A stretch of DNA of 64,000 nt from Alkalispirochaeta sp. (GTDB lineage: Bacteria > Spirochaetota > Spirochaetia > DSM-27196 > Alkalispirochaetaceae): positions 2,688,001 through 2,752,000 of the forward strand of contig OZ271854.1 of NCBI GenBank assembly GCA_965601925.1. The letters are read 5' to 3'. Shown here one piece after another: positions 9,005 through 44,462 of the stretch. The notes beneath the pieces are model-generated. The model was not told the origin of the DNA, ran no database searches, and saw only the letters and a program-made list of their open reading frames with translations. Positions within the stretch are counted from its first letter, which is position 1. Each line of letters begins with the position of its first letter. Position numbers and translations under genes: made by a program.

Positions 9005-9056
9005 TACACTACAACAGGTCAGGGCGTTTGTTGCTCGCACAAGTACACATGAGCAT

Positions 9057-9602
9057 ATGAAGCGACGATCTGCGGGTCAAGGAGAGGCGCGAGTGGAACT
9101 ACTTCCGGAAATCGCAGGAAGGCGTAGTACCCGACATTTTGTAAACGAGACCCTACCTCCGGACATCGTTTCACGAATTGTCGAAGCCGGACGGAGAGCA
9201 CCGTCGGCGAAAAATCGGCAGGCGTGGCGGTTTATCGTAGTACGCGAGATCGAGACACGGCAGAAGTTGCAGGAGGCGTGCTTCGGTCAGGATTACGTCG
9301 GCGAGGCGTCGATCGTGATCGCGCTATGCACGACGAATATCGACTACAAGATGCCCAACGGTATGATGAGCTATCCCGTCGATCTCGGGATCGCCGGCGC
9401 ATTCATGATGCTCCAGGCCGAGCATGAGGGGCTCGGTACCTGTCCTGTCACAACGTTTCGAGAAGAGGAAGTCAAATCGATTCTCAGCGTGCCGTACAAG
9501 ATGCGCGTAGTAATGCTCCTGCCCGTGGGACGTCCGGCCGGCGAGAGCGAGTTGTCGCGTAGACTTCCGTTGGAGCGACTCGTCGGATGGGAACACTGGT
9601 AG
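9057..9602 (+). CDS. Nitroreductase family protein
   Basis: RRSTRHF, APSAKNRQAWRFIVV, GLGTC motifs. Confidence 0.9.
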   Translation: MKRRSAGQGEARVELLPEIAGRRSTRHFVNETLPPDIVSRIVEAGRRAPSAKNRQAWRFIVVREIETRQKLQEACFGQDYVGEASIVIALCTTNIDYKMPNGMMSYPVDLGIAGAFMMLQAEHEGLGTCPVTTFREEEVKSILSVPYKMRVVMLLPVGRPAGESELSRRLPLERLVGWEHW

Positions 9603-9624
9603 GCGCGGCGTGTCCGCGGCCCCT

Positions 9625-28701: not shown

Positions 28702-30258
28702 ATGGCGCGATATTTAGTCGGCATCGACTTCGGAACCGGAGGAGCGAAAGCGGCGGTCATCGACGAGGAGGGACATGACCTCGGATTTGCCTACGAAGAG
28801 TACGAAATCATTCGCGAGCGCCCCCTATGGTCGGAACACGAAGCACGGGAGTATTGGCCGATCGCCGGTCGTCTGATTCGCGCTGCGCTCGCGCGCGCCG
28901 GTGTTCCGGCGACGGCGGTAGCGGGGATCGCAGCGTCCTCGGCGCTCCCCTCGATGGTCATGGTGGATCGCGAAGGGCAGCCGATCAATCGGGGCTACAC
29001 GTTGATGGACCGCCGCGCCCGTGACGAGGTGGCGTGGCTTAAGGAGACGGTGGGCGAGGAGCGTTGTTACGAGTTGTCGGCCTATCGTGTCGAGGACCAC
29101 CCCCTGTTGGTCAATCTCCTTTGGGAAAAGCGGCGGCGACCGACGGACTACGCACGGATCGCCTCGGTCCTCACGATCGACGGATACATTACCTACAAGC
29201 TCACCGGCCGCGCCGTCGCCAACGTCGGGGCCGCCGCCTTCTACGGTCTGGCGTACGACATCCGCACGCGACGTTTCGACGTTTCGATGCTCGATGAGAT
29301 CGGTATCGACGGCGCCCTCCTGCCTGAGGTGCTGCCGAGTGAGGCGATCGTCGGCGAGGTCACCACAAGCGCCGCCGAGGTGACCGGGCTCGCTCCGGGA
29401 ACGCCGGTCGCGGCCGGGCAGGTCGACTGTAACGCCAGTTGGGTCGGCGCCGGCGCCACCGCGGTGGGCGACATCCAGAGCAACCTCGGCACGGTCGGTA
29501 ACTTCGGCATTATCCATCGCGATCTCGATTTTCTGTTCTCCGATATCGGAAAGAAGCTCATGAGTTTCCCGTATACCGTCGAGAGCGAGACGACGTACAT
29601 CACCGTGCCGACCACGATCACCGGCGGTCAAACGCTCCGCTATCTCCGCGACACCGTGGGACAGGCCGAACGGGAGGCAGAGCGTCTGACCGGGATATCG
29701 GCCTACGACAGCTTCACGGCGCTTGCCGCCACCGCCCCGGTCGGGTGCGACGGGTTGGTCGTATTGCCGTATCTCGCCGGAGAGCGCACGCCGATCTGGG
29801 ACGCCGACGCGCGCGCAGTCGTCTACGGCCTCTCGTTGCACCACGGTAAGGGACACCTTATACGCGGCTTCATGGAGGGGGTGGCCTACGCGATGTACGA
29901 CTCGTTTCGCTTGGTTCGCGAGGCCGGGATGACGGTCAACGTTCCGATGGTGCTCAATGAGGGGGGCGCCGTGAGTCCCTTGTGGCGGCGCATCATCACC
30001 GACGTGTTCGATGTCGAGACGGCGATGGTAAAGCGGCGGACCGGCGCGCCCTTCGGCGACGCGGTACTGGCCGGTGTCGCAACCGGCGTCTTTTCCTCCT
30101 TCGACGTCACGCGGAAATGGGTGGAGCTGGTGGACGCGATGGAGCCGGATCGCCGGAATCACGAGCGCTATATGGAGCTCTTTGAGGTCTACAAGACGGT
30201 ATACGAACGGACCAAGGATCAGTTCAAGGTCCTATCAGCGATAAGGAGCGGCGAATGA
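28702..30258 (+). CDS. FGGY-family carbohydrate kinase (xylulokinase-like)
   Basis: GIDFGT, LPYLAGERTP.WD..AR, GGA.S..W..I..DV. Confidence 0.9.
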   Translation: MARYLVGIDFGTGGAKAAVIDEEGHDLGFAYEEYEIIRERPLWSEHEAREYWPIAGRLIRAALARAGVPATAVAGIAASSALPSMVMVDREGQPINRGYTLMDRRARDEVAWLKETVGEERCYELSAYRVEDHPLLVNLLWEKRRRPTDYARIASVLTIDGYITYKLTGRAVANVGAAAFYGLAYDIRTRRFDVSMLDEIGIDGALLPEVLPSEAIVGEVTTSAAEVTGLAPGTPVAAGQVDCNASWVGAGATAVGDIQSNLGTVGNFGIIHRDLDFLFSDIGKKLMSFPYTVESETTYITVPTTITGGQTLRYLRDTVGQAEREAERLTGISAYDSFTALAATAPVGCDGLVVLPYLAGERTPIWDADARAVVYGLSLHHGKGHLIRGFMEGVAYAMYDSFRLVREAGMTVNVPMVLNEGGAVSPLWRRIITDVFDVETAMVKRRTGAPFGDAVLAGVATGVFSSFDVTRKWVELVDAMEPDRRNHERYMELFEVYKTVYERTKDQFKVLSAIRSGE

Positions 30259-31307
30259 GCGATACGATGAGGGCGGTCGTAATGACCGCTCCGATGCAAC
30301 TGGAGGTTCGCGACGTTCCGCGCCCTCGAGTCGAGGACGGCGGCATGCTCGTAAAGGTCGAGGCGTGCGGATTGTGCGGGAGCGACCTGAGAACGATAAG
30401 GAGCGGGCATAGCAAGGTGACGCTGCCGTGGATCCTGGGCCACGAAATTTGCGGCACCGTCGTTGCGACCGGCAACGACTATCGCGGATCGTGGGCTCCC
30501 GGGGACCGCCTCTCGATCGGGCCCAATACCTACGATCCGACCGATCCCTATTGCATCGACGGCCGGCACGAGTTGAGCTCGGGAGTCCGTGAAATCGCCC
30601 AGGCGTGGCCCGGGGGATTCGCCGAGTACGTCGCGATACCTCCGGAGTCGGTACGGTTGGGAAACCTCCTTCCGGCTCCCGACGGTATGCCGTCGTCGAT
30701 CGCCGCGATCGTCGAGCCGGGGTCCTCGGTCATTCACGCTCACGAGAAGGCGGGAACGCACCTGGGCGATACGGTCCTGGTGATGGGAACCGGGCCGATC
30801 GGGTGCCTCCACCTGGCCGTAGCGCGCGCCTCGGGCGCCTCCAAGGTGTTTGTGTGCGATATCAACGAGGATCGTCTCGCGGCGGCCGAGACCTTCGGTC
30901 CCGACGCACTCATTCATAACGCTACCGAGAATGTGGTGGAGCGCGTTCGTGAGTTGACCGACGGGGTTGGACCGTCGATCGTGATTACCGCCAACCCGTC
31001 GCCGGCCTCCCAGGTCACCGCAGTCGAGGCCGCGGCGGTGGGCGGACGGGTGGTGCTCTTCGGCGGGTTGCCCCACGGCGACAGCACCCCGGGGGTCGAC
31101 ATGAACCTCGTCCACTACAAGAACCTCACTATGATCGGAATCTCCAAGTTCGCGCCGCGTCACTTCGCCATGAGCTTGGCGCTGTTGCGATCCGGACAGA
31201 TTCCCGGAGAGAAGGTGGTGACCGACGTTATGGCGCTCGACGACTTTCACGCCGGCCTCGACCTCGCCATGCGAGGGCGTGCGATCAAGGTGGTGTTCAC
31301 GCCGTGA
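30255..31307 (+). CDS. Zinc-dependent (MDR) polyol dehydrogenase
   Basis: CGSD, GHE, VEP, GTGPIG; the structural 4-Cys Zn site is degenerate. Confidence 0.88.
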   Translation: MSDTMRAVVMTAPMQLEVRDVPRPRVEDGGMLVKVEACGLCGSDLRTIRSGHSKVTLPWILGHEICGTVVATGNDYRGSWAPGDRLSIGPNTYDPTDPYCIDGRHELSSGVREIAQAWPGGFAEYVAIPPESVRLGNLLPAPDGMPSSIAAIVEPGSSVIHAHEKAGTHLGDTVLVMGTGPIGCLHLAVARASGASKVFVCDINEDRLAAAETFGPDALIHNATENVVERVRELTDGVGPSIVITANPSPASQVTAVEAAAVGGRVVLFGGLPHGDSTPGVDMNLVHYKNLTMIGISKFAPRHFAMSLALLRSGQIPGEKVVTDVMALDDFHAGLDLAMRGRAIKVVFTP

Positions 31308-31816
31308 CCGACTCGATGAGGCTTCCGTTCTTGTCCGGCGGCGTCGCCCAGATCGCATGGGTCGTCGACGACGTAGAGGCGGCGGTGCGGCGGTATCACG
31401 AACGGTTCGGCGTCGGACCGTGGCACTTCTATACCTACGGTCCGCCTCTGGTGAAGCGCGCGAGCTATCGCGGTCGACCGAGCCGCGCCCGCATGCGCGT
31501 CGCGCTCTCCTACTTCGGACCGATGCGCGTCGAGTTGATCGAGCCCGTGGAGGGGCCGTCGATCTATCACGAGTTTGTCGAGCGGTGCGGGTACGGGGTG
31601 CATCACCTCGGAGTCGTGGTGGAGGACATGGATGAAGCGCTCCGTGCCGCGGCGGAGGCGGGCTACACGATGATTCAGGACGGCAGCGGATTCGGACTCG
31701 ATGGAGACGGGCACTACGCCTACCTCGACACCGAGGCCGATCTGGGTGTGATCTACGAGTTAATCCGGCGGCCGGCGCGGAGAGTGCCGCCGGAGAGAAT
31801 CTATCCTGAGGAGTGA
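31304..31816 (+). CDS. VOC family protein (methylmalonyl-CoA-epimerase-like)
   Basis: QIAWVV.D, ELIEP..G.SIY.EF...G.GVHHLG, YLDT....G..YEL. Confidence 0.85.
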   Translation: MTDSMRLPFLSGGVAQIAWVVDDVEAAVRRYHERFGVGPWHFYTYGPPLVKRASYRGRPSRARMRVALSYFGPMRVELIEPVEGPSIYHEFVERCGYGVHHLGVVVEDMDEALRAAAEAGYTMIQDGSGFGLDGDGHYAYLDTEADLGVIYELIRRPARRVPPERIYPEE

Positions 31817-31867
31817 CGCGGTGCGAGGGCGCCGCAACGCATTCCCGGTGAGAAAGGAGCAGGAGTG

Positions 31868-32854
31868 ATGAAGTGGGACTATGCCGCAATTGCAGTCGTG
31901 TTCGGATCGTGTGCCGATCGGTACGTCATTCAGGGATATACCGAGAAGCGCACCTTCGACCAGATGTTGGCCGATGCGCGGACGGTGCCGGGTATCAAGG
32001 GAATCGAGGTGATCGGCGGATGGCACATCACCGACGAGAACGCCTCACAGGTCGTCGCGCAGATTAAGGACGCCGGATTCGAGTTGGCGTGCGTCATCCC
32101 GGAGATTTGGGCCAATCCCAAGTGGGGCTGGGGATCGTTCGCCTCTACCGATCCCGGTATTCGTCGCGACGCGGTGGAACGGGTCAAGGCCGCCATGGAC
32201 GCTGCAGCGGCGGCAGGCTGCTCGATGATCAGTCCGTGGTTCGGCCACGACGGGTGGGACTACATCTTTACCATGGATTACCTCAAGGCGTACGACTGGA
32301 TCATAGAAGGGTTGTCGGAGTGCGCGGATCACAACCCCGCGGTCAACATCGCCGTCGAGTTCAAGCTCAAGGAGCCGAGGACACACATTCTCGTCAGCAA
32401 CACCGCCAAGACGCTCATGATGGTCAACGAGGTCGACAAGCCGAACGTGGGGATCAATTTGGATACCGGTCACGCCCAGTACGGGTACGAGAACCTCGCC
32501 GAGAGCGTCGCTCTCATGCGCCGGTTCGGCGACAAGCTCATGCACATCCACCTCAACGACAACTACCGCTATTGGGACGACGACATGATTCCCGGTTCGG
32601 TACACACCTTGGAGTGGGTCGAGTTCTTCTACTGGCTGGACAAGGTGGGATACGGCGGATACCTGAGCCTGGACGTCTTCGCCTTTCACGAACGGGACAA
32701 GGCGGCGGTGGCGCGAGAGTCCCTCAAATGGCTCGATCTCTTTCAGGAGGCCGCCTCACGTCTCGACCCCGAGGAGGTAGAGGGCGTACTCGAGTCGGGA
32801 GACGCAATGGCCGCGCAAGCGATGGTCCGCAGCGCGCTTTGGCCCGGCAAGTAG
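31868..32854 (+). CDS. Xylose-isomerase-like TIM-barrel sugar isomerase/epimerase
   Basis: W.GHDG.DY, EFK.KEPR.H, LDTGHA, HIHLNDN...WDDD; AAGGAG RBS. Confidence 0.85.
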   Translation: MKWDYAAIAVVFGSCADRYVIQGYTEKRTFDQMLADARTVPGIKGIEVIGGWHITDENASQVVAQIKDAGFELACVIPEIWANPKWGWGSFASTDPGIRRDAVERVKAAMDAAAAAGCSMISPWFGHDGWDYIFTMDYLKAYDWIIEGLSECADHNPAVNIAVEFKLKEPRTHILVSNTAKTLMMVNEVDKPNVGINLDTGHAQYGYENLAESVALMRRFGDKLMHIHLNDNYRYWDDDMIPGSVHTLEWVEFFYWLDKVGYGGYLSLDVFAFHERDKAAVARESLKWLDLFQEAASRLDPEEVEGVLESGDAMAAQAMVRSALWPGK

Positions 32855-32965: not shown

Positions 32966-35242
32966 TTACTCCTTCGCCGTCGATGCGTCGGTCGGCTCGT
33001 CGAATACGATCGTCGCACCCGGAAGCTCGATCACGTCCCCAGCCTCCAAGGTACGTTTTGTGTAGCGCCGGTTGTTGACCGTTACCGGCTGGGCGCTTAC
33101 GACGGTGTAGGTGCCGCGCTTCTCGTCGTGGACGATCGTGGCGTGGCGCTCCAACATGTCGGGGGAGCCTGCAATCGTCACGTCCGCCTCGGCACTCGCG
33201 CCGATGACCGTCTGCGGTCCCGACAGATCGAGCACCTTGGTCGAACCTCCCTGCGCGCCTAAGATTTCGAGGTTTGCCGCACTCCGCCCGCGGCGCGCCC
33301 GCAGAAGCGTCAACAACCACGCCAGGAGCGGAGCGGCGAGGATCGGAACGAGATAGATGAAGCCGAAGTCGTCGCGCGGAAGGCCGAAGATAGTACCGGC
33401 AAAGTAGCGCCGTTCGGCATCGACCGTCCGACCCGGCACCGCGACTTCGATGCGCACGGTCCGGAAATCGGCCGGCGAGATACCGGCGCGGTACCGGATG
33501 CGGTATTCGGTGAGGATCCGCTCGCGAATCAGGGTGTATACCGACTGGAGTTCCGCCGCATCGGCGGCGTCGAAGACCAACCCTCCCGCCGAGGCGGCGA
33601 TCTCTCCCAATAGAGGTTCGCCGCCGCCGGCGAAGTCTATCGCAAACACGCTTATCCCGGCGCGCTCGACAGCGGCCAACGTCTCCTCAATCGAGACCGA
33701 CCGGTCGCCGAACTCCGGATGGGGGCGACCGCTGTTGGCTGCAAAGGGGAAGTTCTCGCCGTCGGAGAGAATGATGAGCGCGCGACGTCCTCCTGCGTCC
33801 TCCAGATCGGCGGCGGCGGTCATAACGGCGCGAAAGAGTTCGGTGTATGCCTCGTCCGGTTCGGGGCGTTCGATCTCCTCAAAGATGAGATCGATCGTCC
33901 GCGGCGATTCCGTCGGCCCCGTGAGGAGGCGATAGCGCGTGTTGAAGGTCGCCAAAGCAAAGCGGTCGTTCGGCGTATCGATCTGATTCAGGAATTGCCT
34001 CATCGCCGATCCGACGGCGGCCATGCGGGTCGCTCCGCGCTCCTCGGTCGGTCTCCCGCCTATGGTGTCGTACATGCTGCCGGAGTTGTCGACCAGAAAG
34101 AAGAAGGTCACGCCGTCCTCTTCGTTGGCGCGTTCGTCCACCGAAATGAGCTCAACGGCGCCGAGCTCACCGCCGTCGGGTGCCTCGTACACCCGCATGT
34201 CGTCGGCGGTCAGCCCCGGTACGGGCCGCCCCGCGGAATCGGTAATCGATGCGTATAGGTCGATCTGTTGGTGGGTGACCAGGCGATCGATGTCGATCTG
34301 AGCGGGGCGGACGCTCTGTGCCGACAGGACGTCGACGCCGACGCCGCCCACCAACAGCGCTGCGGCCAGTATGAGCGGACGGAAGAGCAGCTTGGCGGAC
34401 CCGATCTGAAGCACATCGCCGAACTTGAGAAATCCCGAACCGTCTTCCGGTATCGCCTCGTCGTTGCGCTTGATCTCGTTCCCGTCGGCGGAGGGATAGA
34501 TTGCCAGTTCGCCTCCCTGCTCGCGAATCTCCGCGTGGCGTTCGGCGACTCGGCGATATCCCGGGATGCATACGTCGCTTCCCGCCCACTCGCCGATAAG
34601 TACGCGACGCTGGTTCAGAACAAACTCGGACCCCTTGCGCGGACCGTTGAGGAGACGGAGCATTCCCGTGGTCTGTCGATCCTCCACGAGGCTGTACATC
34701 GCGCTGACCAGAAGGCCGTAGACGACGACACCGATGGGACGCGCGTACTCTCGGGCGATGATGCGCGGCGCGATCTCGATCGCGAAGCCGCCGGCAAGCC
34801 CGCCGAGGAGTCCGCCTGCCAGCCCCCCGAAGGTGCGGCGCACGGAGCGGCGCCGCACACCCTCCGATCCGCCGACCGCCATCCCGAGTATCGCCCAACC
34901 GGCCGCGCGCGAGGCGGCGACTCCGACGGCGCCGAGCTGTGCGAAAAACAGGAGTGCTACCTGCCCCAGGACGAAACCGGCGGCACCCCCGACGGCACCG
35001 GTTGCCGCGCCGATGAGCGCGCCGCCGGCTACTCTGCGACGCACCCCGGCGACCATTCCGTCGATCGCACCGAAAAACGCGCCGAAGATGAGACCGAATG
35101 TGGCGCCCGAGGCGAGGCTGAAGGCGAGATACGATGGGAATCGCGACTGGAGCACGAGCATCGTCTCGAGGACGGGCCACGCCGCCGCACCGCCCAAGAG
35201 ACCCATTGCAAGGTAGACGAGTCGTCGCATTGCGTGTGACAT
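32966..35242 (-). CDS. Membrane protein: Gly-rich multi-TM region - FHA - TM/signal - vWA - TM - FHA
   Basis: vWA MIDAS LVDNSGSM...T...LSDGE; two FHA-fold segments (IG...D..I......HA.I....GDV..IG/P). Confidence 0.82.
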   Translation of the reverse strand: MSHAMRRLVYLAMGLLGGAAAWPVLETMLVLQSRFPSYLAFSLASGATFGLIFGAFFGAIDGMVAGVRRRVAGGALIGAATGAVGGAAGFVLGQVALLFFAQLGAVGVAASRAAGWAILGMAVGGSEGVRRRSVRRTFGGLAGGLLGGLAGGFAIEIAPRIIAREYARPIGVVVYGLLVSAMYSLVEDRQTTGMLRLLNGPRKGSEFVLNQRRVLIGEWAGSDVCIPGYRRVAERHAEIREQGGELAIYPSADGNEIKRNDEAIPEDGSGFLKFGDVLQIGSAKLLFRPLILAAALLVGGVGVDVLSAQSVRPAQIDIDRLVTHQQIDLYASITDSAGRPVPGLTADDMRVYEAPDGGELGAVELISVDERANEEDGVTFFFLVDNSGSMYDTIGGRPTEERGATRMAAVGSAMRQFLNQIDTPNDRFALATFNTRYRLLTGPTESPRTIDLIFEEIERPEPDEAYTELFRAVMTAAADLEDAGGRRALIILSDGENFPFAANSGRPHPEFGDRSVSIEETLAAVERAGISVFAIDFAGGGEPLLGEIAASAGGLVFDAADAAELQSVYTLIRERILTEYRIRYRAGISPADFRTVRIEVAVPGRTVDAERRYFAGTIFGLPRDDFGFIYLVPILAAPLLAWLLTLLRARRGRSAANLEILGAQGGSTKVLDLSGPQTVIGASAEADVTIAGSPDMLERHATIVHDEKRGTYTVVSAQPVTVNNRRYTKRTLEAGDVIELPGATIVFDEPTDASTAKE

Positions 35243-35243
35243 G

Positions 35244-36869
35244 TTACTCCTCCTGTGGGTCGAGCCCGACCTCGATGACGAGGCGGCTTTCCTCGGCCTG
35301 TATCATAAGGCTGAATACTTGCGTGGCGTACCCTTCGTGGCTGAACCGGAAACGGTGCACTTCGCCGCTACGCAGTTGAAATGAAAGCGCCGGCGTGAAG
35401 GCGAGCCAGCGGTCGCCGATCAGTATCGAAACGCGCGTACCGTCACCGATAAGGCGTCCGGTTTCGCGATCGACAACGGTGAAATCGACCTCCAACGGCA
35501 ACCTCGGGCGCTCGACGAACTCTGCCGTGACGTGGTACGCATCCACTCGGCGACCGGGAATCACCAGGCGGGTCGCGCTTCGCTCCCTCAACGAAGGGAG
35601 TGCGAACGACTCCCACCATACGATACTCCCGTTGGAAACCTTTACGCGGTAGGCGCCGGGGGTAAACTGGGCTCGGCGAGCGCGAAACACGTAGAACCGT
35701 TCGGTCTCTTCCTCCGGCACGATACGAAACGTCAACTCGCCCCCCGGTGCCTCGGGAATCTCCTCACCGTCGTCGACGAATACGGCGCCGGTTAGACGGA
35801 TCGCATCACGGTCGCGATCGGCCTTGAGCACGCGTGCGGTTACCTCGAGCGCTCCGTAGCGCGCGGGCCGGAAGAGTTCGCGATGGTACCCTCGGACAAA
35901 GAGGAGCCCGACGCCCAACGATAGGAGGAGCGCGGCCGCAACGCCCGCCGCGACGGCGAGTCTCGATCGGCGTTGCGGGAGTGCCTCCGCCTGTTCCTCG
36001 GTAAGATAACGACGGATCGTCTCGTCGCTGCGCTCGTTGGCTCCGATACGGTAGCGCCGATTGATGCGTGACGCGACTCGTTCCAGATGGGAGAATCGTC
36101 TGTCCGGTCGCGCCTTGAGCATCCGCGCCACGAGGCGCGCGACAAACGGTGAGACTTTGGGGTTGATGCGCCGCGGCGGCGTGTAGCGACCGCGTTGGAT
36201 ACGCGCAATTACCTCGGGAGTGAATGAACCGGGGTAGGGGCGCTTGCCGGTAACCATCTCGTAGAGTACGACGCCCAACGAGTAGATATCGGCGCGCTTG
36301 TCCACCGAGCGCGTACTACGAAACTGCTCGGGTGCCATATAACTCGGAGTACCGAGGGTCATTCCGTCGCGCGTCAGATCGGATTGCTCCTCGCCGCCGT
36401 GAATCGTGGCGATGCCGAAGTCGACGAGTTTTACCTCTCCCTCGTTGGAGATCAGGATGTTGGCGGGCTTTATGTCGCGGTGGACGACACCTTTATCGTG
36501 GGCGTAGGCCAGGGCGCGACACACTTCGCGCAGGATAAGAAGCGCGATTCCGTTCGGAAGATAGCGGCGCTGCCGGATCAGTGCGTCTAAGGACATCCCG
36601 TCGACGTACTCGAGCACGATGTAGTACGAAGAACCCTCGCGAAAGTGGTCGTATACGTCGACGATCGCGTCGTTACGCAGGTCCATCATGATCTGCGCTT
36701 CGCGACGAAAGCGCTCGCGAATATCGGCGTTACCCCGTAAGGTGAGCTTTTTGATGATGACCGTGCGTTCCAAGGTGGGATGACGCGCCGTATACACCGC
36801 GCCCATGCCGCCCTGGGCCAGGCGCGAGAGCACCTTGTACTTTCCGATCGATTCAACCGTCTTTGCCAT
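35244..36869 (-). CDS. Hanks-type Ser/Thr protein kinase with TM and C-terminal extracytoplasmic domain
   Basis: GGMGAVY, IIKK, HRDIKPAN, DFG, GTPSYMAPEQ, DIYSLG; TM after the kinase domain. Confidence 0.93.
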   Translation of the reverse strand: MAKTVESIGKYKVLSRLAQGGMGAVYTARHPTLERTVIIKKLTLRGNADIRERFRREAQIMMDLRNDAIVDVYDHFREGSSYYIVLEYVDGMSLDALIRQRRYLPNGIALLILREVCRALAYAHDKGVVHRDIKPANILISNEGEVKLVDFGIATIHGGEEQSDLTRDGMTLGTPSYMAPEQFRSTRSVDKRADIYSLGVVLYEMVTGKRPYPGSFTPEVIARIQRGRYTPPRRINPKVSPFVARLVARMLKARPDRRFSHLERVASRINRRYRIGANERSDETIRRYLTEEQAEALPQRRSRLAVAAGVAAALLLSLGVGLLFVRGYHRELFRPARYGALEVTARVLKADRDRDAIRLTGAVFVDDGEEIPEAPGGELTFRIVPEEETERFYVFRARRAQFTPGAYRVKVSNGSIVWWESFALPSLRERSATRLVIPGRRVDAYHVTAEFVERPRLPLEVDFTVVDRETGRLIGDGTRVSILIGDRWLAFTPALSFQLRSGEVHRFRFSHEGYATQVFSLMIQAEESRLVIEVGLDPQEE

Positions 36870-37899
36870 CGAAGATTCCCTCGTCGTAAGCAAGCTCCAC
36901 TACGTCACGCTCCGGGTCAAATCGGCGATTCGCCGGCGGGAGCGCGACGATCAAGCGCGAAGGATTATGAAACTGCACGTACCGGCCGCCGGCCCGCAAC
37001 GCGTAGCGTCCCGTCACCGGCCGGTGCCCTCCCAGATGGATCGCCTCGCCGTCGGCGCAGTGGGGAAGGAAATGGGCGAGCGTCGCCGCCACGCTCCCAT
37101 CCTCTGCGGCGTCGTTGTCCGTCCAGGTGAGTCCCTCGACGACCTCCGGCCGATCGCGATACTCGACGATCTCCTCGCTCAAAAAGGGGCGCATCGGTTC
37201 GGCGTGCGTCACCACGTAGCGCGTACCGACGGCCATGAGCGGTAACGACTTCTCGAACCGGTACACCGCCTCGGTCGCCTCGCCGCGGTAAAACCGTTGC
37301 ATATACGCGGCAACCATCGCACCCTCATACACAAACTTGCCGAAACGGTGGTTCCCGTCTCCCTCTTCGTTCGTAATATTCTCGTGATTTCCTTTGAGAC
37401 CGTGGACGCGGTCGGGATATGCCCTCTTGAGGAGCGCCACGGTCCTGAGGACCGCGAGACTCTCATACATCTCCTCATCCATCGCATCGTGAACGCGATA
37501 CCCATCGGTAAACTCCTCGAAGGCGCGTATCCATCGACGACGCGCACGCGCCTCACCGTGGACGTAATCGCCTACCATGACCAACTGTGCCCGGTCGGCG
37601 TCGATCGCGGACAGGAGCGGTGTGTCGATTCCGTGTTCGGGAAACGAGGTGGATAGCACCGTCGTGACGAGATCGATCCGCGCGTGGATATCGGGAAGAA
37701 CCACCGCCGGAAGCTCCGGCCGCAGGTGAACGAGTCCTCCGGGGCGGCCGTTCGTATCGCGGGGACGGAGCGAGGCGTCTTCCTCGGCAAGAGCAGTGCA
37801 CGCGCCTTCCATATCCGAGGTAAGTTCTTCGGCCGACGGAGGCGTCGTGTCGGCCGCGATGCGTTGTAACCGGTCGATGACGGCGTTCAGATCGCCCAT
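36853..37899 (-). CDS. Calcineurin-like metallophosphoesterase (PPP-like phosphatase candidate)
   Basis: PDIHAR, GDYVHGE, KGNHEN, THAEP, GGHRP metal-ligand motifs; overlaps the kinase start. Confidence 0.85.
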   Translation of the reverse strand: MGDLNAVIDRLQRIAADTTPPSAEELTSDMEGACTALAEEDASLRPRDTNGRPGGLVHLRPELPAVVLPDIHARIDLVTTVLSTSFPEHGIDTPLLSAIDADRAQLVMVGDYVHGEARARRRWIRAFEEFTDGYRVHDAMDEEMYESLAVLRTVALLKRAYPDRVHGLKGNHENITNEEGDGNHRFGKFVYEGAMVAAYMQRFYRGEATEAVYRFEKSLPLMAVGTRYVVTHAEPMRPFLSEEIVEYRDRPEVVEGLTWTDNDAAEDGSVAATLAHFLPHCADGEAIHLGGHRPVTGRYALRAGGRYVQFHNPSRLIVALPPANRRFDPERDVVELAYDEGIFDGKDG

Positions 37900-38430
37900 C
37901 TACGATTGTACGATCGTCTTGTTGACCTCGATGAAATCGTCGGCGAGCACCTTGGTGACGTCGGTCAACAGCTCTTCTTCTACCTCGGGTTCGAGCTCGT
38001 CGATCGTTACGGCGATCATGTACACCGCCGAGCTGGATTTGATCGGTCCGTTCGTGAACGTCGCGACGGAGTCCACTGCAACGTCCTCTTTTAAGGCCGT
38101 CGCATCGGCGCTCGAATGGTCGGGCACGTCCCGTCGAATCCCGATCGAGGTGTAGTCTACCGTCCTCTTGTCGTCGACCAGCGGTCCGACCGTCAATAGC
38201 GAGCCCGAGTAGGTCAGAAAGAGCGCTCCGCGCTCCTCCGTGGCGCCGAACTCCTCGATCTCCTCCATCCCCTTCTCCGCGACACGCTGCTCGAAGATCT
38301 CCTTCTTCTCGAGCCACGCCGAAGCGAGACGCTCCATCGACTCCTCATTTTCGGGGAGTCCCGATGTCTTTGTTATATTCCGAATGTGATCCCGTACGGC
38401 GTCGGGAACCTTGTCCATGTGTTCGCCCAT
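37900..38430 (-). CDS. Acidic hypothetical protein, paralog of the N-terminal domain of 38508-39398
   Basis: AAAGGAG RBS; stop abuts the phosphoesterase ATG; shared WLEK / RGA..LTYSGSL...GP / Y.SI..R.DVP motifs. Confidence 0.85.
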   Translation of the reverse strand: MGEHMDKVPDAVRDHIRNITKTSGLPENEESMERLASAWLEKKEIFEQRVAEKGMEEIEEFGATEERGALFLTYSGSLLTVGPLVDDKRTVDYTSIGIRRDVPDHSSADATALKEDVAVDSVATFTNGPIKSSSAVYMIAVTIDELEPEVEEELLTDVTKVLADDFIEVNKTIVQS

Positions 38431-38507
38431 AGAAACTCCTTTCTTGTGTGATACATTTTTCAACATGGCGCAGAATAGTCCCGAATTCCACAATCGAGAG
38501 GACGAGT

Positions 38508-39398
38508 ATGGCGAAGTTTGACGAATTGCCCGAATCGATACGGAGACACCTCGTTTCCTTGGCCGAAGAGACCGATATCACGCCCGCCGAGACGGCGCTG
38601 GAGCGCGTAACCGACAACTGGCTCGAGAAGCGTCGCCTGTACACCGAGCAAACCGAAGCCTTGGCGATGGTCGCCCAGACGCGCTTTGCCGCCGACGACC
38701 GGCGCGGAGCGATGCTCCTCACATACTCGGGATCACTCATTTCGATCGGACCCGTCGGCGATTCGGGGCGGCGGCTGGAGTACGCGAGCATCAAGCTGCG
38801 CACCGACGTACCGGGCCTTCTCAAGGGCGACGATGTCGGGATCGCGCAGGAGATCGTCGTCGATCGCCCGGCCGTGTTCGAGAGTGCGCCTCTCGCACGC
38901 AGCTCCGAAGTATTGTCGATCGTGTCCTTCGGACCGAAGGTGTCGGCCGGCGAACAGTCCGAGCGGCTCCGGCAGGCGATGCTCTTTCTTACCAACGGGT
39001 TCGTTCAGGCGAACCAGACGCTCTCGGTCGCCGGCGGCGCGTATCCCGACCAGTTTACGATGCGGGCGATGATCAAGAGCGTCGCGGCGCATAACGATAC
39101 GACGCAGACGGCGGCCAAAGCGATCATAGACGACTTTTTGGGTACCGTAGAGGCGGGCGTGCTCCTCGGCAAGCGCGTATCGATCGGCGGCCTCGGCCGC
39201 GTGGAGCTATCCGTCAAACCGGCCCGCAAGGCGCGCATGGGGCGCAACCCCGCCACCGGTGAGGAGATTCTTATCTCCTCGAAACCCGCCGTCTCCGCGC
39301 CTAAGATGAGTTTCGGGAGTGCGTTCAAAGAGCGGTCGTCCCACGTGCCGCCGGGGCGTATACGACCCGATCTCGCCGAGGATGAAAGCGGCTCGTAG
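38508..39398 (+). CDS. Unknown N-terminal domain fused to an HU/IHF-family DNA-binding domain
   Basis: C-terminal 'V.IGGLG...ARKARMGRNPATGEEI.I' HU signature (about 39054-39335); GAGAGG RBS. Confidence 0.88.
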   Translation: MAKFDELPESIRRHLVSLAEETDITPAETALERVTDNWLEKRRLYTEQTEALAMVAQTRFAADDRRGAMLLTYSGSLISIGPVGDSGRRLEYASIKLRTDVPGLLKGDDVGIAQEIVVDRPAVFESAPLARSSEVLSIVSFGPKVSAGEQSERLRQAMLFLTNGFVQANQTLSVAGGAYPDQFTMRAMIKSVAAHNDTTQTAAKAIIDDFLGTVEAGVLLGKRVSIGGLGRVELSVKPARKARMGRNPATGEEILISSKPAVSAPKMSFGSAFKERSSHVPPGRIRPDLAEDESGS

Positions 39399-39829
39399 GG
39401 GACGTGGCGGCGCCAGTGCACCCATAGTCCTATCGCACGAAAACGGAACATACGCCGTACGGGCGCCTTGTCACCATACATCCCTCGCCTGACCACACTG
39501 GTTACGGTTTGGCGCCCGTCGACGAGAAACACTTTACGAGCGACTCGCCGGCGTCGAGTACGATATCAATCACGTCGGTATCCACCATTGCCACGCCGTG
39601 CCTCGATCGAACGGCGGATAATACCGGCGTTCTTCGAGGTCGGGGAGCGGTGGGCCGAGCTCGCCCCGACGGTCGGCCTACCTCCTACACCGCACTATGC
39701 GTACCTCGCGCCCCATGTGCGTGCCAATAGCGTGCGCGAACCTTACCGCGCCGTCGATATGCGACATTGGAAAGACGCGTTTTCCCGGATCTCACATCCA
39801 TCGCGGCCCGTGGTATGGTACAGTGATAC

Positions 39830-41041
39830 ATGCAGGACCTTATGGGTAGTGAAGATCACGCCACCGTCTGTTACGGAACGTCTGCTCCCCACGCGTGGAA
39901 CGCGCACGTGGGATCCTATCGCGTCGAGCTCAATCACCATCCCGGCGACCCGCCGAATGTCCGTCGAATAACCGCGCGCTCGGGTGACGGCGGGTGTGTC
40001 GTCGAGATTGCGCCGTCGAAAGGGTTGTCGTTCCGTTCCGCGCGCTTCGGCGATCAGGAGCTGTTTTGGGAGCCTCCGCTTCCCAATTTGCCCGATCCCG
40101 AGGAGATCGATTTGGCCGGTACGGTCTGGATCGACGGCACGGAACACCGCGGCGCGGCGTGGGTGCGGTACTTCGCCGCCAGCGTCGAACTCTTGGGGCT
40201 GGACCATTGGGGTATGCACGACCGCCGCGGTGCGACGCTCCACGGCAACGCCTCGATGATTCCCGTTGAGCATGTGACATTTCGAGAGAGAGGCGACGAG
40301 ATTGAGATTTCGGGAGCGTTTCATATCGCCGACCCGGTGGATGTGCTCCCCGGACCGAATCGTCGACCGTACTACCGCGTCGCGCGGACGATACGTATCC
40401 ACGGGGCGAGGAGATCGCTGTATCAGCGCGACCGCATTACCAACCTCTCCGACGACCCCAAAACGCCCGATTGGGGGTATCACGTGCAACTTCGCCCCGA
40501 GCCGGGAAGTCGGTATCTGGTGCCGGCGCGCAGCACGCATCCGCGCCGCAGTCCCGGTGAGCCGCCGCCGGCGGACGCCGATACGTGGCGTCCCGTCGTC
40601 GATGCGACCACGCGCCGCGAACGCGGGTATGTACACCGCGATGTGTTGCGTGCGGCGGCGTTTCCCGACGGTTCGCCGGGGGTCGAGACGTTGCTCCTCC
40701 ACCCTCACGGCACCGGTGTGGCCTGTACTATCCCGCCGGCGTCCTACACGCTCTCGTGGTTTTCGTCGGGAGGTGCGAACGATCCGACCTTCTCGCTCCC
40801 GACGGGACCGAACGGAGAGCTTCTCCCCATCTTTGATCGTAACTGGGACGGAGTAGGACCCGAGATCGGTGCCAGCGCCCTCGACGGCGACGGCGATATC
40901 GACCCCTCCGTCGCACCGCACCGTCTGGAGCCCGGTGACTCCTTCGATCTGCAGCTTCTCCTGCGATTAGTCGATAAGGATGAAGCGGCGCGTATCGGCG
41001 ATCGGATTCTCCGTTATCGCGGGGGGACGACGGACCGATAG
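39830..41041 (+). CDS. DUF4432 / galactose-mutarotase-like superfamily protein
   Basis: 'EI.PSKGL', 'GL..WG....TLHG..S.IP', 'D.ITN', 'YH', 'G.GPE', 'LEPG' beta-sandwich pattern. Confidence 0.65.
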   Translation: MQDLMGSEDHATVCYGTSAPHAWNAHVGSYRVELNHHPGDPPNVRRITARSGDGGCVVEIAPSKGLSFRSARFGDQELFWEPPLPNLPDPEEIDLAGTVWIDGTEHRGAAWVRYFAASVELLGLDHWGMHDRRGATLHGNASMIPVEHVTFRERGDEIEISGAFHIADPVDVLPGPNRRPYYRVARTIRIHGARRSLYQRDRITNLSDDPKTPDWGYHVQLRPEPGSRYLVPARSTHPRRSPGEPPPADADTWRPVVDATTRRERGYVHRDVLRAAAFPDGSPGVETLLLHPHGTGVACTIPPASYTLSWFSSGGANDPTFSLPTGPNGELLPIFDRNWDGVGPEIGASALDGDGDIDPSVAPHRLEPGDSFDLQLLLRLVDKDEAARIGDRILRYRGGTTDR

Positions 41042-41111
41042 GGCGCCGTCGATACTCGATGTAACGGCATCCCACCCGCGGAGCAAGAGACTACGATTGT
41101 TCGCTTTGTGC

Positions 41112-41140
41112 TTGACCCGTGGAGTATTCCCCTGTACTGT
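41112..41140 (+). promoter_or_regulatory. Sigma70 promoter TTGACC-N17-TACTGT for the ROK operon
   Basis: Near-consensus -35 and -10 with 17-nt spacing. Confidence 0.7.
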
Positions 41141-41175
41141 TAGTTTATTCGTTGAATGAACTAACAGTACAGGGG
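41129..41175. promoter_or_regulatory. Palindromic ROK (XylR-type) operator with 22-bp arms
   Basis: CCCCTGTACTGTTAGTTTATTC-GTT-GAATGAACTAACAGTACAGGGG (1 mismatch); the core TTAGTTT-N11-GAACTAA resembles Bacillus xylO. Confidence 0.8.
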
Positions 41176-41176
41176 G

Positions 41177-42211
41177 GTGCCCATCGATATGGCGGTGCAG
41201 GATCGTATCCGACGCACGAATCTATCTCGCATTCTCCACCTACTGCGGCGCTTCGGATCCGCGTCACAGGCGGAACTCGCCCTACGTACCGGACTACAAC
41301 CTTCGACCGTCTCGAATCTGGTACGCGAGTTGCGTCTCGGAGAGTACGTGGTCAGCCTGGGGCGCGGCGCATCGAGCGACCAAGGCGGTAAGCGTCCGAC
41401 GCTACTCGCCCTGAACGGGAAGCGCGGCGTCTATATCGGTCTGCTATGGGAGGCGGGCGTCGTCGCGTGGACGATAGTGGATCTTTCGGGCGGCATTGGT
41501 GCTTTGACGAGAGGGGCGGTGCGACACGAGACGCTCGACCCTTCACAGTCACGGACGCCCGAGGAGGTTCTCGCCGAGCTTGCCGGTAGCGCCGCGAATG
41601 ATCTCGGCGGCAGTGTACCGATTCTGGGAGTCGGGCTCGCCGTCGGGAGTGTCGTCGACCGCCACGGCGCGATTCGGCCTTCGGCGGACTTTTCGTGGGC
41701 TCTTCGGGAACCGGCCGCCGAGCTGAAGCGCCTCTTTGCCGTGGACGACTCGGTGCCGATAACCGTCGAGAATGATGCGAATTGTGTCGCCCTCTCGGCG
41801 GTCCGACGTCGAATTGGGTACGAAGACGGCTCGACGCCCGAGTCGCTGTTGGCGGTGCTCATTACCGATGCCCCGTTGTCGGCCGGGGTCGGGTTACTCA
41901 TCGATGATGAGCTCATTCGCGGGCGTACCGGGAGCTCGGGCGAACTCTTACCGGCGGGCCACGACCATGCGACGGACGATGTCGACCGGGCGCTCGCGGC
42001 GGCGCTGCGCCTCATCGATCCCGACGAGGTCGTTCTGGCGCGACCGGCGACGATATCCCTTTCTCAGCTGTCGCGCTCGCGCGTTGCGCTCGGCGATACG
42101 CCGTTGTACGAGGTCGATCCGGTGGACTCCATTCTCGACGGCGCCGTTGAGCTCGCCTTTCGAGCAAGCGTTCGTCATATCGTACAGGGAGATTTCACGC
42201 ATGCACGGTAA
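41177..42211 (+). CDS. ROK family transcriptional repressor
   Basis: N-terminal HTH (S.AELA..TGL..STVSNLV.EL), GGKRP..L, ENDANC.AL, G.SGE. Confidence 0.88.
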   Translation: MPIDMAVQDRIRRTNLSRILHLLRRFGSASQAELALRTGLQPSTVSNLVRELRLGEYVVSLGRGASSDQGGKRPTLLALNGKRGVYIGLLWEAGVVAWTIVDLSGGIGALTRGAVRHETLDPSQSRTPEEVLAELAGSAANDLGGSVPILGVGLAVGSVVDRHGAIRPSADFSWALREPAAELKRLFAVDDSVPITVENDANCVALSAVRRRIGYEDGSTPESLLAVLITDAPLSAGVGLLIDDELIRGRTGSSGELLPAGHDHATDDVDRALAAALRLIDPDEVVLARPATISLSQLSRSRVALGDTPLYEVDPVDSILDGAVELAFRASVRHIVQGDFTHAR

Positions 42212-43439
42212 TATCTTGGTCGGTCAATCCGGTGGACCCACGGCGGTGATCAACGCCAGTTTGGCGGGCGTGCTGCGGGCGGCGCGGACGGCGGGGTTCG
42301 GTGATGGTGACGGTTCGATCTACGGTATGCGCTTTGCGATCGAGGGGTTTTTGGAGGATCGCCTCCTCGATCTGGGAACGCTCTCACCCAACGACATCGA
42401 GCGGTTGCGCACAACTCCGGGTTCGGCCCTCGGCTCGTGCCGCTACAAGCTTGCCGATAAGGACCTTCCCCGGATTAAGGAGCGCTTGGAGCGTTGGAAC
42501 GTTCGCTATCTATTTTACATCGGCGGCAACGACACGATGGATACGATTCATAGGATCGTTGCGTACTGCGATCGGACCGGCTACACGCTGCAGGGTATCG
42601 GGATTCCCAAAACGGTGGACAACGACCTGTTTGCGACCGATCACACGCCCGGCTATCCGTCGGCGGCGCGATACGTCGTGCTGTCCGTGCAACAGGCCGG
42701 TCGGCTTGCGGCGGACATGCAACGCGTCGATCGCTTTGTAATCCATCAAACGGTCGGGCGCGACGCGGGGTGGCTCGCGGCCGCATCCGCAGTCGCGCGG
42801 CGAGCCCCCGACGAGGCGCCGCATCTCATCTACGTCCCCGAACGGCCCCTTACTCGCGAGGGGGTGCTTGCCGACGTGGAGCGGACGATCTCGGAGTACG
42901 GGTGGGCGTCAATCGTGGTCGGCGAGGGGATCGTCTGGGAGGACGGGACGCCCGTCTCCGCCGCCGCGTCAAGGGATCGATTCGACAACGTCGAGTTCGG
43001 CGCCATGAGCGGTTCGAGCGCGGCGGTCGGCCTCCACCGCCTGATATCCGAGAAGACCGGATATCGCGGTGAGTTTCAGATCCCCGAATCCATGGCAATG
43101 GCCGCCGCCGACCGCGTCGTGGAACTCGACCGAATGGAGGCGTACGGTTGCGGCGTCGAGGCCGTGTCTCGTGCCATGCGCGGAGAAAACAACGTGATGG
43201 TTACCATAGAGCGCGCGGAGTCCCGGCCGTATCGCGTGCGCTACGGCGCGGCCCCGCTCTCCGACGTCGCGGCCCGCGCCAAACCGATGCCCTCGGACAT
43301 GCTCGCCCCGGCGTGGGTGAGCGATCGATTTCTCGCCTATGTGCGACCCCTTATCGGACCACTCGATCGATACATCGATCTCGGCGCCCTTGCGCCGGCG
43401 GCGGTCGAGCGAGCGGCGGGACGAAGCGACGGAATATAA
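42201..43439 (+). CDS. PfkA-family phosphofructokinase, probably PPi-dependent
   Basis: GQSGGPTAVIN, LGSCR, GGNDTMDT (Asp at the donor-determining site), PKTVDND; MGR motif altered to VGR. Confidence 0.88.
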   Translation: MHGNILVGQSGGPTAVINASLAGVLRAARTAGFGDGDGSIYGMRFAIEGFLEDRLLDLGTLSPNDIERLRTTPGSALGSCRYKLADKDLPRIKERLERWNVRYLFYIGGNDTMDTIHRIVAYCDRTGYTLQGIGIPKTVDNDLFATDHTPGYPSAARYVVLSVQQAGRLAADMQRVDRFVIHQTVGRDAGWLAAASAVARRAPDEAPHLIYVPERPLTREGVLADVERTISEYGWASIVVGEGIVWEDGTPVSAAASRDRFDNVEFGAMSGSSAAVGLHRLISEKTGYRGEFQIPESMAMAAADRVVELDRMEAYGCGVEAVSRAMRGENNVMVTIERAESRPYRVRYGAAPLSDVAARAKPMPSDMLAPAWVSDRFLAYVRPLIGPLDRYIDLGALAPAAVERAAGRSDGI

Positions 43440-43451
43440 AGGAGCGCGAAG

Positions 43452-44462
43452 ATGAATACGCAGGATCGATACGGACGATTTGCGCTGTGTCGCGAGATGT
43501 TGGAGACGGTCGAAGTAGTGCGGCGATTCGACGCCAAGCGGATAGGGCGGACCGAGCTCGCCTCCGATACGGTCCTTCTCACCGGCGAAGGATCAAGCCG
43601 TATTTTTCCCGCCAAGCGTGCGATCGCCCACTCCTTACGAGAAGGGTGGCCGCAACAGATCGTGACCGAAAGCGCAACCCAGGCGTTGGAGTACGATTTG
43701 TCCGGATATCACGTGTTCATAGCCTCCAACTCGGGAAAGACCGCCGAAGGAGTGCATCTCATACGCGCGCTTCGTCGCGAGGGGGCGAAACCCATCGCCG
43801 CTATGACCGGTGTGGTCGCCCACGGTGGTACGCCGATCGCGGAAGAGGCGGACGACGCACTCGTCCTGGATTGCGGCGGCGAAGACGCCGTCGCGGCGAC
43901 CAAGTCGGTGGTGGAGCAAGCGCTCGTATACGATACGCTGTTCAGAGCCGCCAACGGGAGCCCGGGCGTCGATCGCGACGAACTCGCCGACGCGCTGCAC
44001 GCGGCACTGACGATGGATTTGAATACCGACCTCGTGAGGCGGATTGCTTCGTCCCCCGTACTCTATTTTTCGGGGCGTAACGACGGGGTGGCCGAGGAGC
44101 TTACACTCAAGACGAATGAGATCACACGCAAACGGTCGGATTTCCTCGAAGGAACGTACGCCGTGCACGGGATCGAGGAGGTCATGCAGCGTGACGAGAC
44201 GGTAATCGTCATCGATCCGTTTCCGCACCAGGAGGAGAAGTTTGCGTCGGTTCTCAAAGAGGGCGTCGGGATGAATGTGGTGGCCATCGGTCCGCGGGAG
44301 ACGATATTCCCCACCATCACCGTGCCCGACGCCGGGACGCTCTTGCCGTATGTGCTGCTTGCCGCCGGATGGAATCTGTTGGTCGAGGTCGGACTTTCTC
44401 TCACCATCGACCTGGATACTCCCCAGCGGGCGCGCAAGGTAGGTAACGAGTTTGTCGGGTGA
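43452..44462 (+). CDS. Double-SIS sugar-phosphate isomerase/deaminase (GlmS C-terminal / GlmD-like)
   Basis: REMLET, TGEGSS, SNSGKT.E, E.AVAATKS, E..LK..E, P..ARKVG. Confidence 0.8.
   Translation: MNTQDRYGRFALCREMLETVEVVRRFDAKRIGRTELASDTVLLTGEGSSRIFPAKRAIAHSLREGWPQQIVTESATQALEYDLSGYHVFIASNSGKTAEGVHLIRALRREGAKPIAAMTGVVAHGGTPIAEEADDALVLDCGGEDAVAATKSVVEQALVYDTLFRAANGSPGVDRDELADALHAALTMDLNTDLVRRIASSPVLYFSGRNDGVAEELTLKTNEITRKRSDFLEGTYAVHGIEEVMQRDETVIVIDPFPHQEEKFASVLKEGVGMNVVAIGPRETIFPTITVPDAGTLLPYVLLAAGWNLLVEVGLSLTIDLDTPQRARKVGNEFVG

Follow-up and report, generated by a model that had tools for sequence, protein, structure and literature searches.

The TerY-P triad consists of a vWA protein, a PP2C phosphatase and a Ser/Thr kinase; small FHA proteins of the GarA/OdhI type are both kinase substrates and phospho-threonine readers; and HU proteins are usually viewed as constitutive, stand-alone architectural proteins. 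In this study a locus was analyzed that lies within a 64,000-nucleotide stretch of the genome of Alkalispirochaeta sp. (assembly GCA_965601925.1, contig OZ271854.1, positions 2,688,001–2,752,000); this whole stretch is referred to below as the window, and its own numbering is used. Two genes arranged head to head at positions 37900–39398 encode proteins sharing a domain of approximately 175 aa, here designated X: (i) a stand-alone copy (free X), encoded by the first gene of an operon for a calcineurin-like metallophosphoesterase (PPase), a Hanks-type Ser/Thr protein kinase and a membrane FHA-vWA-FHA protein, and (ii) a copy fused to an HU-type DNA-binding domain (X-HU). It is quite possible, if somewhat short of probable, that X is a regulatory module by which the membrane kinase, the phosphatase and the FHA-vWA protein control the HU-type protein.

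The archaellum regulatory network (Arn) of Sulfolobus has the same list of parts, namely FHA (ArnA), vWA (ArnB), Hanks-type kinases (ArnC and ArnD) and a metallophosphatase (PP2A). According to the available portions of the reports, these parts act together, and phosphorylation-dependent complex formation controls gene expression or DNA-bound proteins (PMC6509490, PMC7472852, PMC12852372). The Deinococcus operon DRA0331-0334, as outlined in the accessible part of a preprint, encodes vWA, kinase, FHA and PP2C proteins (10.64898/2026.01.23.701218). Regarding HU/IHF relatives, the accessible parts of the literature describe proteins that combine an HU domain with an extra region, some of them subject to Ser/Thr phospho-regulation: there is a precedent for phospho-regulation in Deinococcus HU (PMC9900698), mycobacterial HupB carries an accessory region (PMC5676037), and the HU-HIG and HU-CCDC81 clades are covered in a 2017 survey of the HU superfamily (PMC5499826).

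The locus described here shares with Arn- and TerY-P-like modules the co-encoded FHA, vWA and Hanks kinase domains, which were found in all 20 loci compared. It differs from Arn in that FHA and vWA are combined in a single membrane protein, which contains two FHA domains, in that the match of the phosphatase to PF00149 is weak, and in that the system is bacterial, restricted to spirochaetes, and carries X and X-HU, which have no Arn counterpart; no homology was found between X and either ArnA or ArnB. As in the TerY-P triad and the Deinococcus operon, a vWA protein, a Hanks kinase and a phosphatase are co-encoded, with FHA in addition in Deinococcus; however, the phosphatase of those systems is a PP2C enzyme instead of a calcineurin-like metallophosphoesterase, and their operons lack both an X domain and an HU fusion. 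X resembles the GarA/OdhI-type proteins, and the FHA protein of a Treponema-like FHA-PPase-kinase operon (see below), in being a small protein encoded first, upstream of PPase and kinase, but it is not an FHA protein, as it lacks a Pfam match and differs in predicted topology. The extensions of HU relatives are, in the portions of the reports available, low-complexity tails or other known domains, unlike X. The main text of the HU superfamily survey, as far as it was accessible, gives no kinase, FHA, vWA or N-terminal-domain context, and its "spirochaet" mentions concern another clade. Literature searches, supplements aside, retrieved no description of X, of its HU fusion, or of a folded 175-aa N-terminal HU extension with a free paralog in a kinase operon. 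What is new here is the X domain and its HU output, while the kind of signalling operon (Arn-like or TerY-P-like) is already known.

Genetic organization of the divergent gene pair

The free X gene (positions 37900–38430, minus strand) encodes a 176-aa protein (P0002), and its stop codon is directly followed by the start of the metallophosphoesterase gene. The X-HU gene (38508–39398, plus strand) encodes a protein of 296 aa (P0001), in which the X domain occupies residues 1–176 (38508–39035, plus strand) and the HU/IHF-type DNA-binding domain residues 186–276 (39063–39335, plus strand). BLASTP comparison of P0002 (residues 5–173) with P0001 (residues 4–172) revealed 51 identical residues out of 169 (30%) and 55% positives, without a single gap (E value 2e-32). 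The end-to-end paralogy proposed in the initial annotation is therefore borne out, and all five motif pairs quoted there are present in this alignment. The source genome contains exactly two copies of X, i.e. those of free X and X-HU.

The strong acidity attributed to the stand-alone copy was also found: free X has a net charge of −20 and a pI (isoelectric point) of 4.39. The N-terminal domain of X-HU has a net charge of −5, and the HU part a net charge of +4 and a pI of 9.69.

The most likely start codons are the ATG at position 38430 (minus strand) for free X and the ATG at 38508 (plus strand) for X-HU, each preceded by a purine-rich ribosome-binding stretch (GGAG and GAGAGGA, respectively). 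These divergent starts leave precisely the 77-bp spacer (38431–38507) that had been singled out before, and it presumably holds the promoters of both genes. A promoter scan of this spacer detected no sigma-70 consensus site, and a repeat/terminator scan no inverted repeat; the only repeat was a direct repeat of 9 nt, within which the ATG of X-HU lies. In the 11 divergent free X/X-HU pairs of relatives, the spacers are about 64–564 bp long. The stretch is contained in 4 sequencing runs, all of one study, among which no RNA run is listed.

The HU domain of X-HU

Residues 186–276 of P0001 match PF00216 (Bac_DNA_binding) with an E value of 4e-14 (53.1 bits; cut-off, 22.4), covering profile positions 4–88 of 90. 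The C-terminus of the protein also matched HU chains among the PDB sequences (best E value 9.9e-07). Structural comparison of the X-HU model using VIA-align identified IHF (1ihf_A; Z 7.0, 96 residues aligned, root-mean-square deviation 3.1), HU (3rhi_A; Z 6.8, 87 residues, 2.1) and Borrelia Hbb (2np2_B; Z 6.5). The Z values are middling, but these matches (87–99 residues aligned) extend over the entire domain and are consistent with the sequence match.

Among 75 X-HU homologs, the arm motif K-A-R-x-G-x-N-P-x-T-G-x-E shows little or no variation: R243, T250 and G251 are invariant, and K241, A242, G245, N247, P248 and E253 are at least 90% conserved. The DNA-binding arms of X-HU therefore look intact; they include Arg residues and the proline of the R-N-P stretch, which has a role in DNA kinking. 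By sequence and model, the C-terminal part of X-HU is a complete HU/IHF-family domain, as had been noted at the outset, with predicted DNA binding. A separate, canonical HU gene of approximately 90 codons is present elsewhere in the source genome (G000:C1:4543906-4544172).

The kinase operon headed by free X

The genes for free X, PPase, kinase and FHA-vWA protein abut or overlap in the window. The second gene (36853–37899, minus strand) encodes the 348-aa metallophosphoesterase, whose match to PF00149 is weak (24.8 bits; cut-off, 21.5); D-x-H, G-D and G-N-H-E motifs were recognized by eye, and neither an NCBIfam family nor a relative among the PDB sequences was found. The enzyme is presumed to be a protein phosphatase; it is not of the PP2C type.

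The third gene (35244–36893, minus strand) encodes a kinase of 549 aa if read from its first start, with a Pkinase domain at residues 19–271 (E value 2.8e-56). Inspection by eye indicated a hydrophobic segment after the kinase domain, followed by a C-terminal part of approximately 210 aa; no Pfam family was found in the C-terminal 218 aa. From the first TTG, the kinase open reading frame (ORF) shares 41 bp (36853–36893) with the end of the phosphoesterase gene, and an in-frame ATG eight codons into the ORF would cut this overlap to 17 bp. With either start, the two genes are, from their sequence, translationally coupled. The kinase is one of two Pkinase matches in the source genome; the other (G000:C1:2307378-2308106; 69 bits) is located outside the window, in an open frame of 2262 codons.

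The fourth gene (32966–35242, minus strand) encodes a 758-aa protein that appears, by eye, to consist of a hydrophobic N-terminal region, an FHA domain, a hydrophobic segment, a vWA domain, another hydrophobic segment and a second FHA domain. The corresponding matches are a Yop-YscD_cpl/FHA-like domain at residues 196–288 (E value 9.2e-14), VWA at 381–569 (E value 5.8e-09; VWA_2, 5.8e-12) and, in the C-terminal 104 aa, PF00498 (27.7 bits; cut-off, 20.7). The NCBIfam OdhI model matched the FHA of this protein weakly (E value 2.2e-06), far below its cut-off.

When the proteins of the window were mapped onto 20 loci from relatives, the gene order X, PPase, kinase, FHA-vWA was found to be kept in 19; the remaining locus (L044) lacks the PPase alone. 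Thus, a PPase homolog is encoded directly downstream of free X in 19 of the 20 loci, and the kinase and the FHA-vWA protein are encoded in all of them. The cluster is retained by many free-living spirochaetes. X-HU lies beside the operon in 17 loci and elsewhere in the genome in 3. Its orientation in the 17 loci is divergent, head to head (11), convergent at the far end of the operon (4), on the same strand downstream (1) or on the same strand upstream (1). In a sample of 401 Spirochaetota genomes, a PPase homolog was present in 51 of the 56 genomes with X, compared with 36 of the 345 without it.

Combinations of vWA, kinase and phosphatase have also been described in surveys of conflict systems (PMC7159879, in its accessible part), and it is conceivable, although very improbable, that the cluster is a defence system of this kind, with X-HU as its DNA-directed effector. 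The kinase domain does match PADLOC kinase models (e.g. PD-T4-6, E value 5.6e-85), but such matches reflect generic Hanks-kinase similarity, while PADLOC has no matching model for X, X-HU, the PPase or the FHA-vWA protein. Moreover, the locus occurs as a single copy whose synteny is kept in many genera, and the GC content of region 34000–44000 (0.57–0.69) shows no sharp break.

Just beyond the FHA-vWA gene, a 556-aa ORF (30219–31889, minus strand) has no Pfam family at E values up to 0.001. On the 3′ side of X-HU, the plus strand of region 39830–43439 encodes a DUF4432 protein, a ROK-family regulator with an N-terminal winged helix and the product of a long ORF (41772–43439); together they look like an unrelated sugar-metabolism unit.

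Distribution and co-occurrence of the two forms

A search of 5.8 billion clustered proteins (E value up to 0.001) with free X yielded 68 homologs of 169–195 aa, plus fragments; those with names come from Spirochaeta africana and from Spirochaetaceae metagenome-assembled genomes. The X-HU search yielded 539 proteins, a total that may include HU-only matches; the 120 listed are all 283–337 aa long and contain PF00216. When 1.84 billion cluster representatives were searched exhaustively with HMMER, only 145 matches were obtained at the same threshold. A scan of one genome per prokaryotic species revealed 204 loci, and of the best 80 of these, 79 carry spirochaete names and one is assigned to an "uncultured bacterium".

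Within the 401-genome sample, the X family is present in 56 genomes, representing 38 of 153 genera. Its distribution is uneven: two large families (f20 and f25) lack it in all of their 75 and 38 sampled genomes, respectively, and in a third (f4) it was detected in 1 of 50. The X family was found only in Spirochaetota.

Free X was identified in 49 of the sampled genomes and X-HU in 34, the HU domain being confirmed in each of the latter. Both forms occur in 32 of the 51 genomes that have either, and they are linked in 21 of the 24 genomes in which both lie on one contig. Seventeen genomes contain free X without X-HU; when five of these were searched again with an X-HU profile, still none was detected. 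The reverse situation was observed in two genomes, both fragmentary. Co-inheritance of the fused and free forms thus holds as a frequent and usually linked association, but it is not strict.

These data bear on the proposal, also made initially, that the acidic free X is a titrating inhibitor or DNA mimic, which would bind X-HU through X-X pairing or over the basic HU arms and so keep it off DNA, the kinase operon being merely co-regulated. Free X is indeed much more acidic than its fused counterpart (median net charge −23 in 64 free sequences versus −9 in 75 fused N-domains). An alignment of these sequences together with five divergent ones showed that the C-terminal helix is acidic in free X, and that in X-HU R153 and N163 of this helix are invariant and Q150, R155 and G164 nearly so, the two arginines counting in favor of the proposal. 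The presence of both forms in 32 genomes, often as divergent neighbors, would also be expected. However, acidity alone is common among bacterial cytoplasmic proteins, and 17 genomes keep free X and the operon without X-HU. Because free X persists in these genomes, it must have a role of its own, and titration is not the whole story; as an explanation of the system we regard it as improbable. Complex prediction for two X-HU chains and one free X gave a score of 0.00 in both runs, made without controls, and speaks neither for nor against binding.

X domains with other outputs

HU is the commonest output of X (34 sampled genomes), but not the only one. In a second group of proteins, X is followed by a helical domain of approximately 120 aa, here termed WF, for which no Pfam family was found. 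This X-WF group comprises ten sampled proteins of 291–305 aa and one frame-disrupted protein of 273 aa. Full-length X-WF genes are present in five sampled genomes (G140:C309:10654-11556, G133:C243:8194-9096, G077:C40:9139-10035, G018:C51:20441-21313 and G154:C166:5080-5952), in neighborhoods that are not conserved: an ABC transporter and a GGDEF protein are encoded nearby in one case, and pyrimidine-synthesis genes in another. Conserved stretches of WF include D-L-F-x-K-W, W-F-R-I-G-G and Y-K-W-x-E-S-E-K-K-D-F-D-I-G-L. The domain also occurs as a stand-alone ORF of approximately 120–140 aa in six sampled genomes (G067, G140, G133, G027, G052 and G012).

Two metagenome proteins extend this range. 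P0208 (276 aa) combines X with DUF2442 (PF10387, E value 6.2e-11). P0257 (701 aa) appears, by eye, to contain a signal peptide, a vWA domain, a membrane segment, X and WF; this would again place X at the cytoplasmic face of a membrane protein with a vWA domain.

A divergent group, X3, is found in low-GC spirochaetes and matches the free X profile with E values of 1e-10 to 1e-14. In two of five loci (L055 and L058), the X3 gene is directly upstream of a stand-alone HU gene, an arrangement that is a split form of the X-HU fusion. In both (L055, positions 8104–10026, genome G044; L058, 5933–6787, G168), an X3 gene of 176–183 codons is followed by a gene for a 95-aa HU protein; in L055 these are followed by a gene for a 372-aa protein that has an HU domain at its N-terminus as well as a hydrophobic segment. 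Upstream of the X3 gene, three of the five loci have a divergent folP, preceded in two by a gene for a protein of approximately 250 aa without a family.

Treponema-like genomes encode the PPase-kinase pair without X or the FHA-vWA protein. In all three such loci examined, the slot of X, directly upstream of the PPase-kinase pair, is occupied by a gene for an FHA protein of 114–123 aa (PF00498, E value about 1e-22). The loci are L147 (5525–9432, G270), L148 (5988–8998, G302) and L149 (6798–9832, G329); in L147 the kinase gene is followed by one for a 267-aa protein without an obvious family.

On an 81-row tree of X, each of the fused or divergent groups falls on one side of a branch: X-HU (31 of 31 sequences, support 99/88), X-WF (11 of 11, 92/100) and X3 (5 of 5, 100/100). 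Free X was not resolved as one group. Since the 31 X-HU N-domains are set apart in this way, free X and the X-HU N-domain descend from an old duplication, in agreement with the first description of the pair.

The variety of outputs also matters for a simpler view, that X is an oligomerization or scaffold domain and nothing else, giving a second HU protein the capacity for higher-order assembly (bridging, compaction), with the kinase neighborhood reflecting shared regulation and not direct control. HU proteins are dimers, and the separate canonical HU gene of the source genome makes X-HU a specialized extra copy. Other HU proteins carry accessory extensions as well, according to the available part of the HupB report (PMC5676037). 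Yet this view explains neither the fusion of X to unrelated outputs, nor the invariant polar residues common to the non-HU forms (see below), nor the translational coupling of the free copy to phosphatase and kinase in 19 of 20 loci, and we consider it decidedly improbable.

Predicted structure and conserved residues of X

No family was found for free X in Pfam or NCBIfam at E values up to 1, and no PADLOC model matched it; the shared domain of P0001 likewise has no Pfam or NCBIfam family. The initial description of the domain as unrecognized therefore stands as far as these three collections are concerned. Comparison of 64 free-type homologs with Pfam at E values up to 10 revealed nothing consistent: the commonest family appeared in 7 of 64 sequences, with a best E value of 0.066. 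When a profile of the 64-row alignment was run against PDB sequences, a proteasome subunit was obtained with a best E value of 0.046, which was taken as a chance match.

AlphaFold (AF2) models were of good quality for both free X (predicted local distance difference test, pLDDT, 87.1; predicted template modelling score, pTM, 0.85) and the whole X-HU protein (pLDDT 89.5, pTM 0.80). The order of elements in X is the same in the two models: a short helix, a long helix (approximately residues 29–52), seven consecutive beta strands (55–142) and a long C-terminal helix (148–175).

Fold searches were performed with the full-length models. Foldseek found no match of X in the PDB at E values up to 0.001. 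When free X was compared with 48,161 representative chains by VIA-align, no Z value reached 5 (best, 4.8, with 89 residues aligned), and most of the rows covered the two long helices alone; for the N-domain in the X-HU model, the best Z was 4.2. A second VIA comparison, with 986 Foldseek candidate chains, reached a best Z of 4.0, for the N-terminal domain of EndoMS/NucS (residues 53–147). The Bet v 1/PYL, p32/gC1qR and Sm-like folds and the EndoMS/NucS N-domain (Z 3.8–4.0) were set aside as weak, non-significant rows, and helical hairpins as matching helices 2 and 3 alone. The predicted fold of X is thus unrecognized in searches of this design, which is no proof of a new fold.

Language-model feature scores (Atlas), of which only those of at least 0.9 count as more than a lead, were below this value for all look-alikes of X: unnamed clusters, MJ1278 (0.82), DUF2299 (0.80), GAF (0.85) and DUF484 (0.84). 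The GAF and DUF484 clusters, at 0.84–0.85, have 110–124 features in common with X.

In the alignment of 64 free, 75 fused and five divergent sequences, P0002 positions W39, K42, F46, T73, G76, S77, R89, Y93, S95, R99, D101, V102, P103, F125, S134 and F166 are conserved in all three groups. On the model, the T-Y-S-G-S stretch is located at the turn that connects strands 2 and 3; strand 4 contributes R89 and Y93, and the loop that follows it contains S95, R99 and D101.

Such a constellation is also what might be expected of a small-molecule sensor, the main rival of a kinase-directed module. X would then bind a ligand, probably an anionic or nucleotide-type one, in its conserved polar pocket, formed by K42, R89, Y93, R99 and D101, and thereby switch HU, WF or DUF2442, and free X would relay the presence of this ligand to the kinase operon instead of serving as its substrate. 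An N-terminal sensor with a variable C-terminal output is a layout that fits this idea, as do the invariant W, K, T, S, R, Y, S, R, D and S residues common to all subfamilies, the sheet that the models show backed by N- and C-terminal helices, and the weak leads to GAF and DUF484; the location of X3 and X-WF genes away from kinases favors it somewhat. On the other hand, these Atlas scores remain below 0.9, there is no GAF, PAS or START chain among the structure matches listed, gene context suggests no ligand, and a sensor role does not account for the close coupling between free X and the PPase, kinase and FHA-vWA protein. On balance we regard a small-molecule sensor as unlikely, albeit worth serious consideration.

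Possible role of X in kinase signalling

The initial annotation had cast X as a ligand-, phospho- or partner-sensing module that regulates a nucleoid protein. Its phospho- or partner-sensing version gains real, though indirect, backing from the kinase operon headed by free X and from the occurrence of X on at least three different C-terminal domains. Because X is a portable N-terminal module, its free copy is built into the operon and its commonest output is HU, we infer that X may be acted on by the kinase, phosphatase and FHA machinery.

The kinase would respond to an envelope signal via its extracytoplasmic part and the presumably outward-facing vWA domain. It could then phosphorylate X, for which the residues of the T-x-x-G-S hairpin kept in all subfamilies are candidate acceptors, or alternatively dock it. 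The FHA domains would read the phospho-state of X and the metallophosphoesterase would reset it. In X-HU, the signal might change how the protein binds DNA or retain it at the membrane. The free copy, which has the same conserved core but an acidic C-terminal helix and no output domain, could serve as a competing substrate or an adaptor that buffers the signal.

Several observations weigh against this scheme. The genes for X3 and X-WF are not located near a kinase gene; X may therefore be able to fulfil its core function independently of a kinase, although the genomes concerned mostly encode the PPase-kinase pair elsewhere. The pair is present without X in 36 sampled genomes, and free X without X-HU in the 17 mentioned above. 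The invariant cluster of Lys, Arg, Tyr and Ser would be no less compatible with a pocket for an anion or other ligand than with a phospho-acceptor site, and the residue three positions after T73 is Gly, which is not known to be a preferred FHA ligand context. Finally, the membrane topology, including the outward-facing vWA domain, was read by eye from the sequence.

A more far-reaching formulation of kinase control, which we consider rather doubtful, is that X is a signal-receiving domain for Hanks-kinase signalling, i.e. a Ser/Thr-phosphorylated counterpart of the two-component receiver. It would be portable, with interchangeable outputs (HU, WF and DUF2442), and its free copy would be comparable to a single-domain response regulator. 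To our knowledge, bacterial Hanks kinases generally have no dedicated output partner comparable to a response regulator; a portable domain found with several outputs and linked genetically to one kinase would be a candidate for such a partner.

The familiar parts of the signalling core limit the surprise of the system, and, with apparently no recognizable solved fold, a structure of X would be informative in itself. If X proves to be such a receiver-like domain, X-HU would be the first nucleoid protein of the HU type with a direct connection to its own, envelope-sensing kinase. X-HU together with the kinase operon offers a specific path, open to experimental test, by which an envelope signal could reach nucleoid or promoter architecture in free-living spirochaetes.

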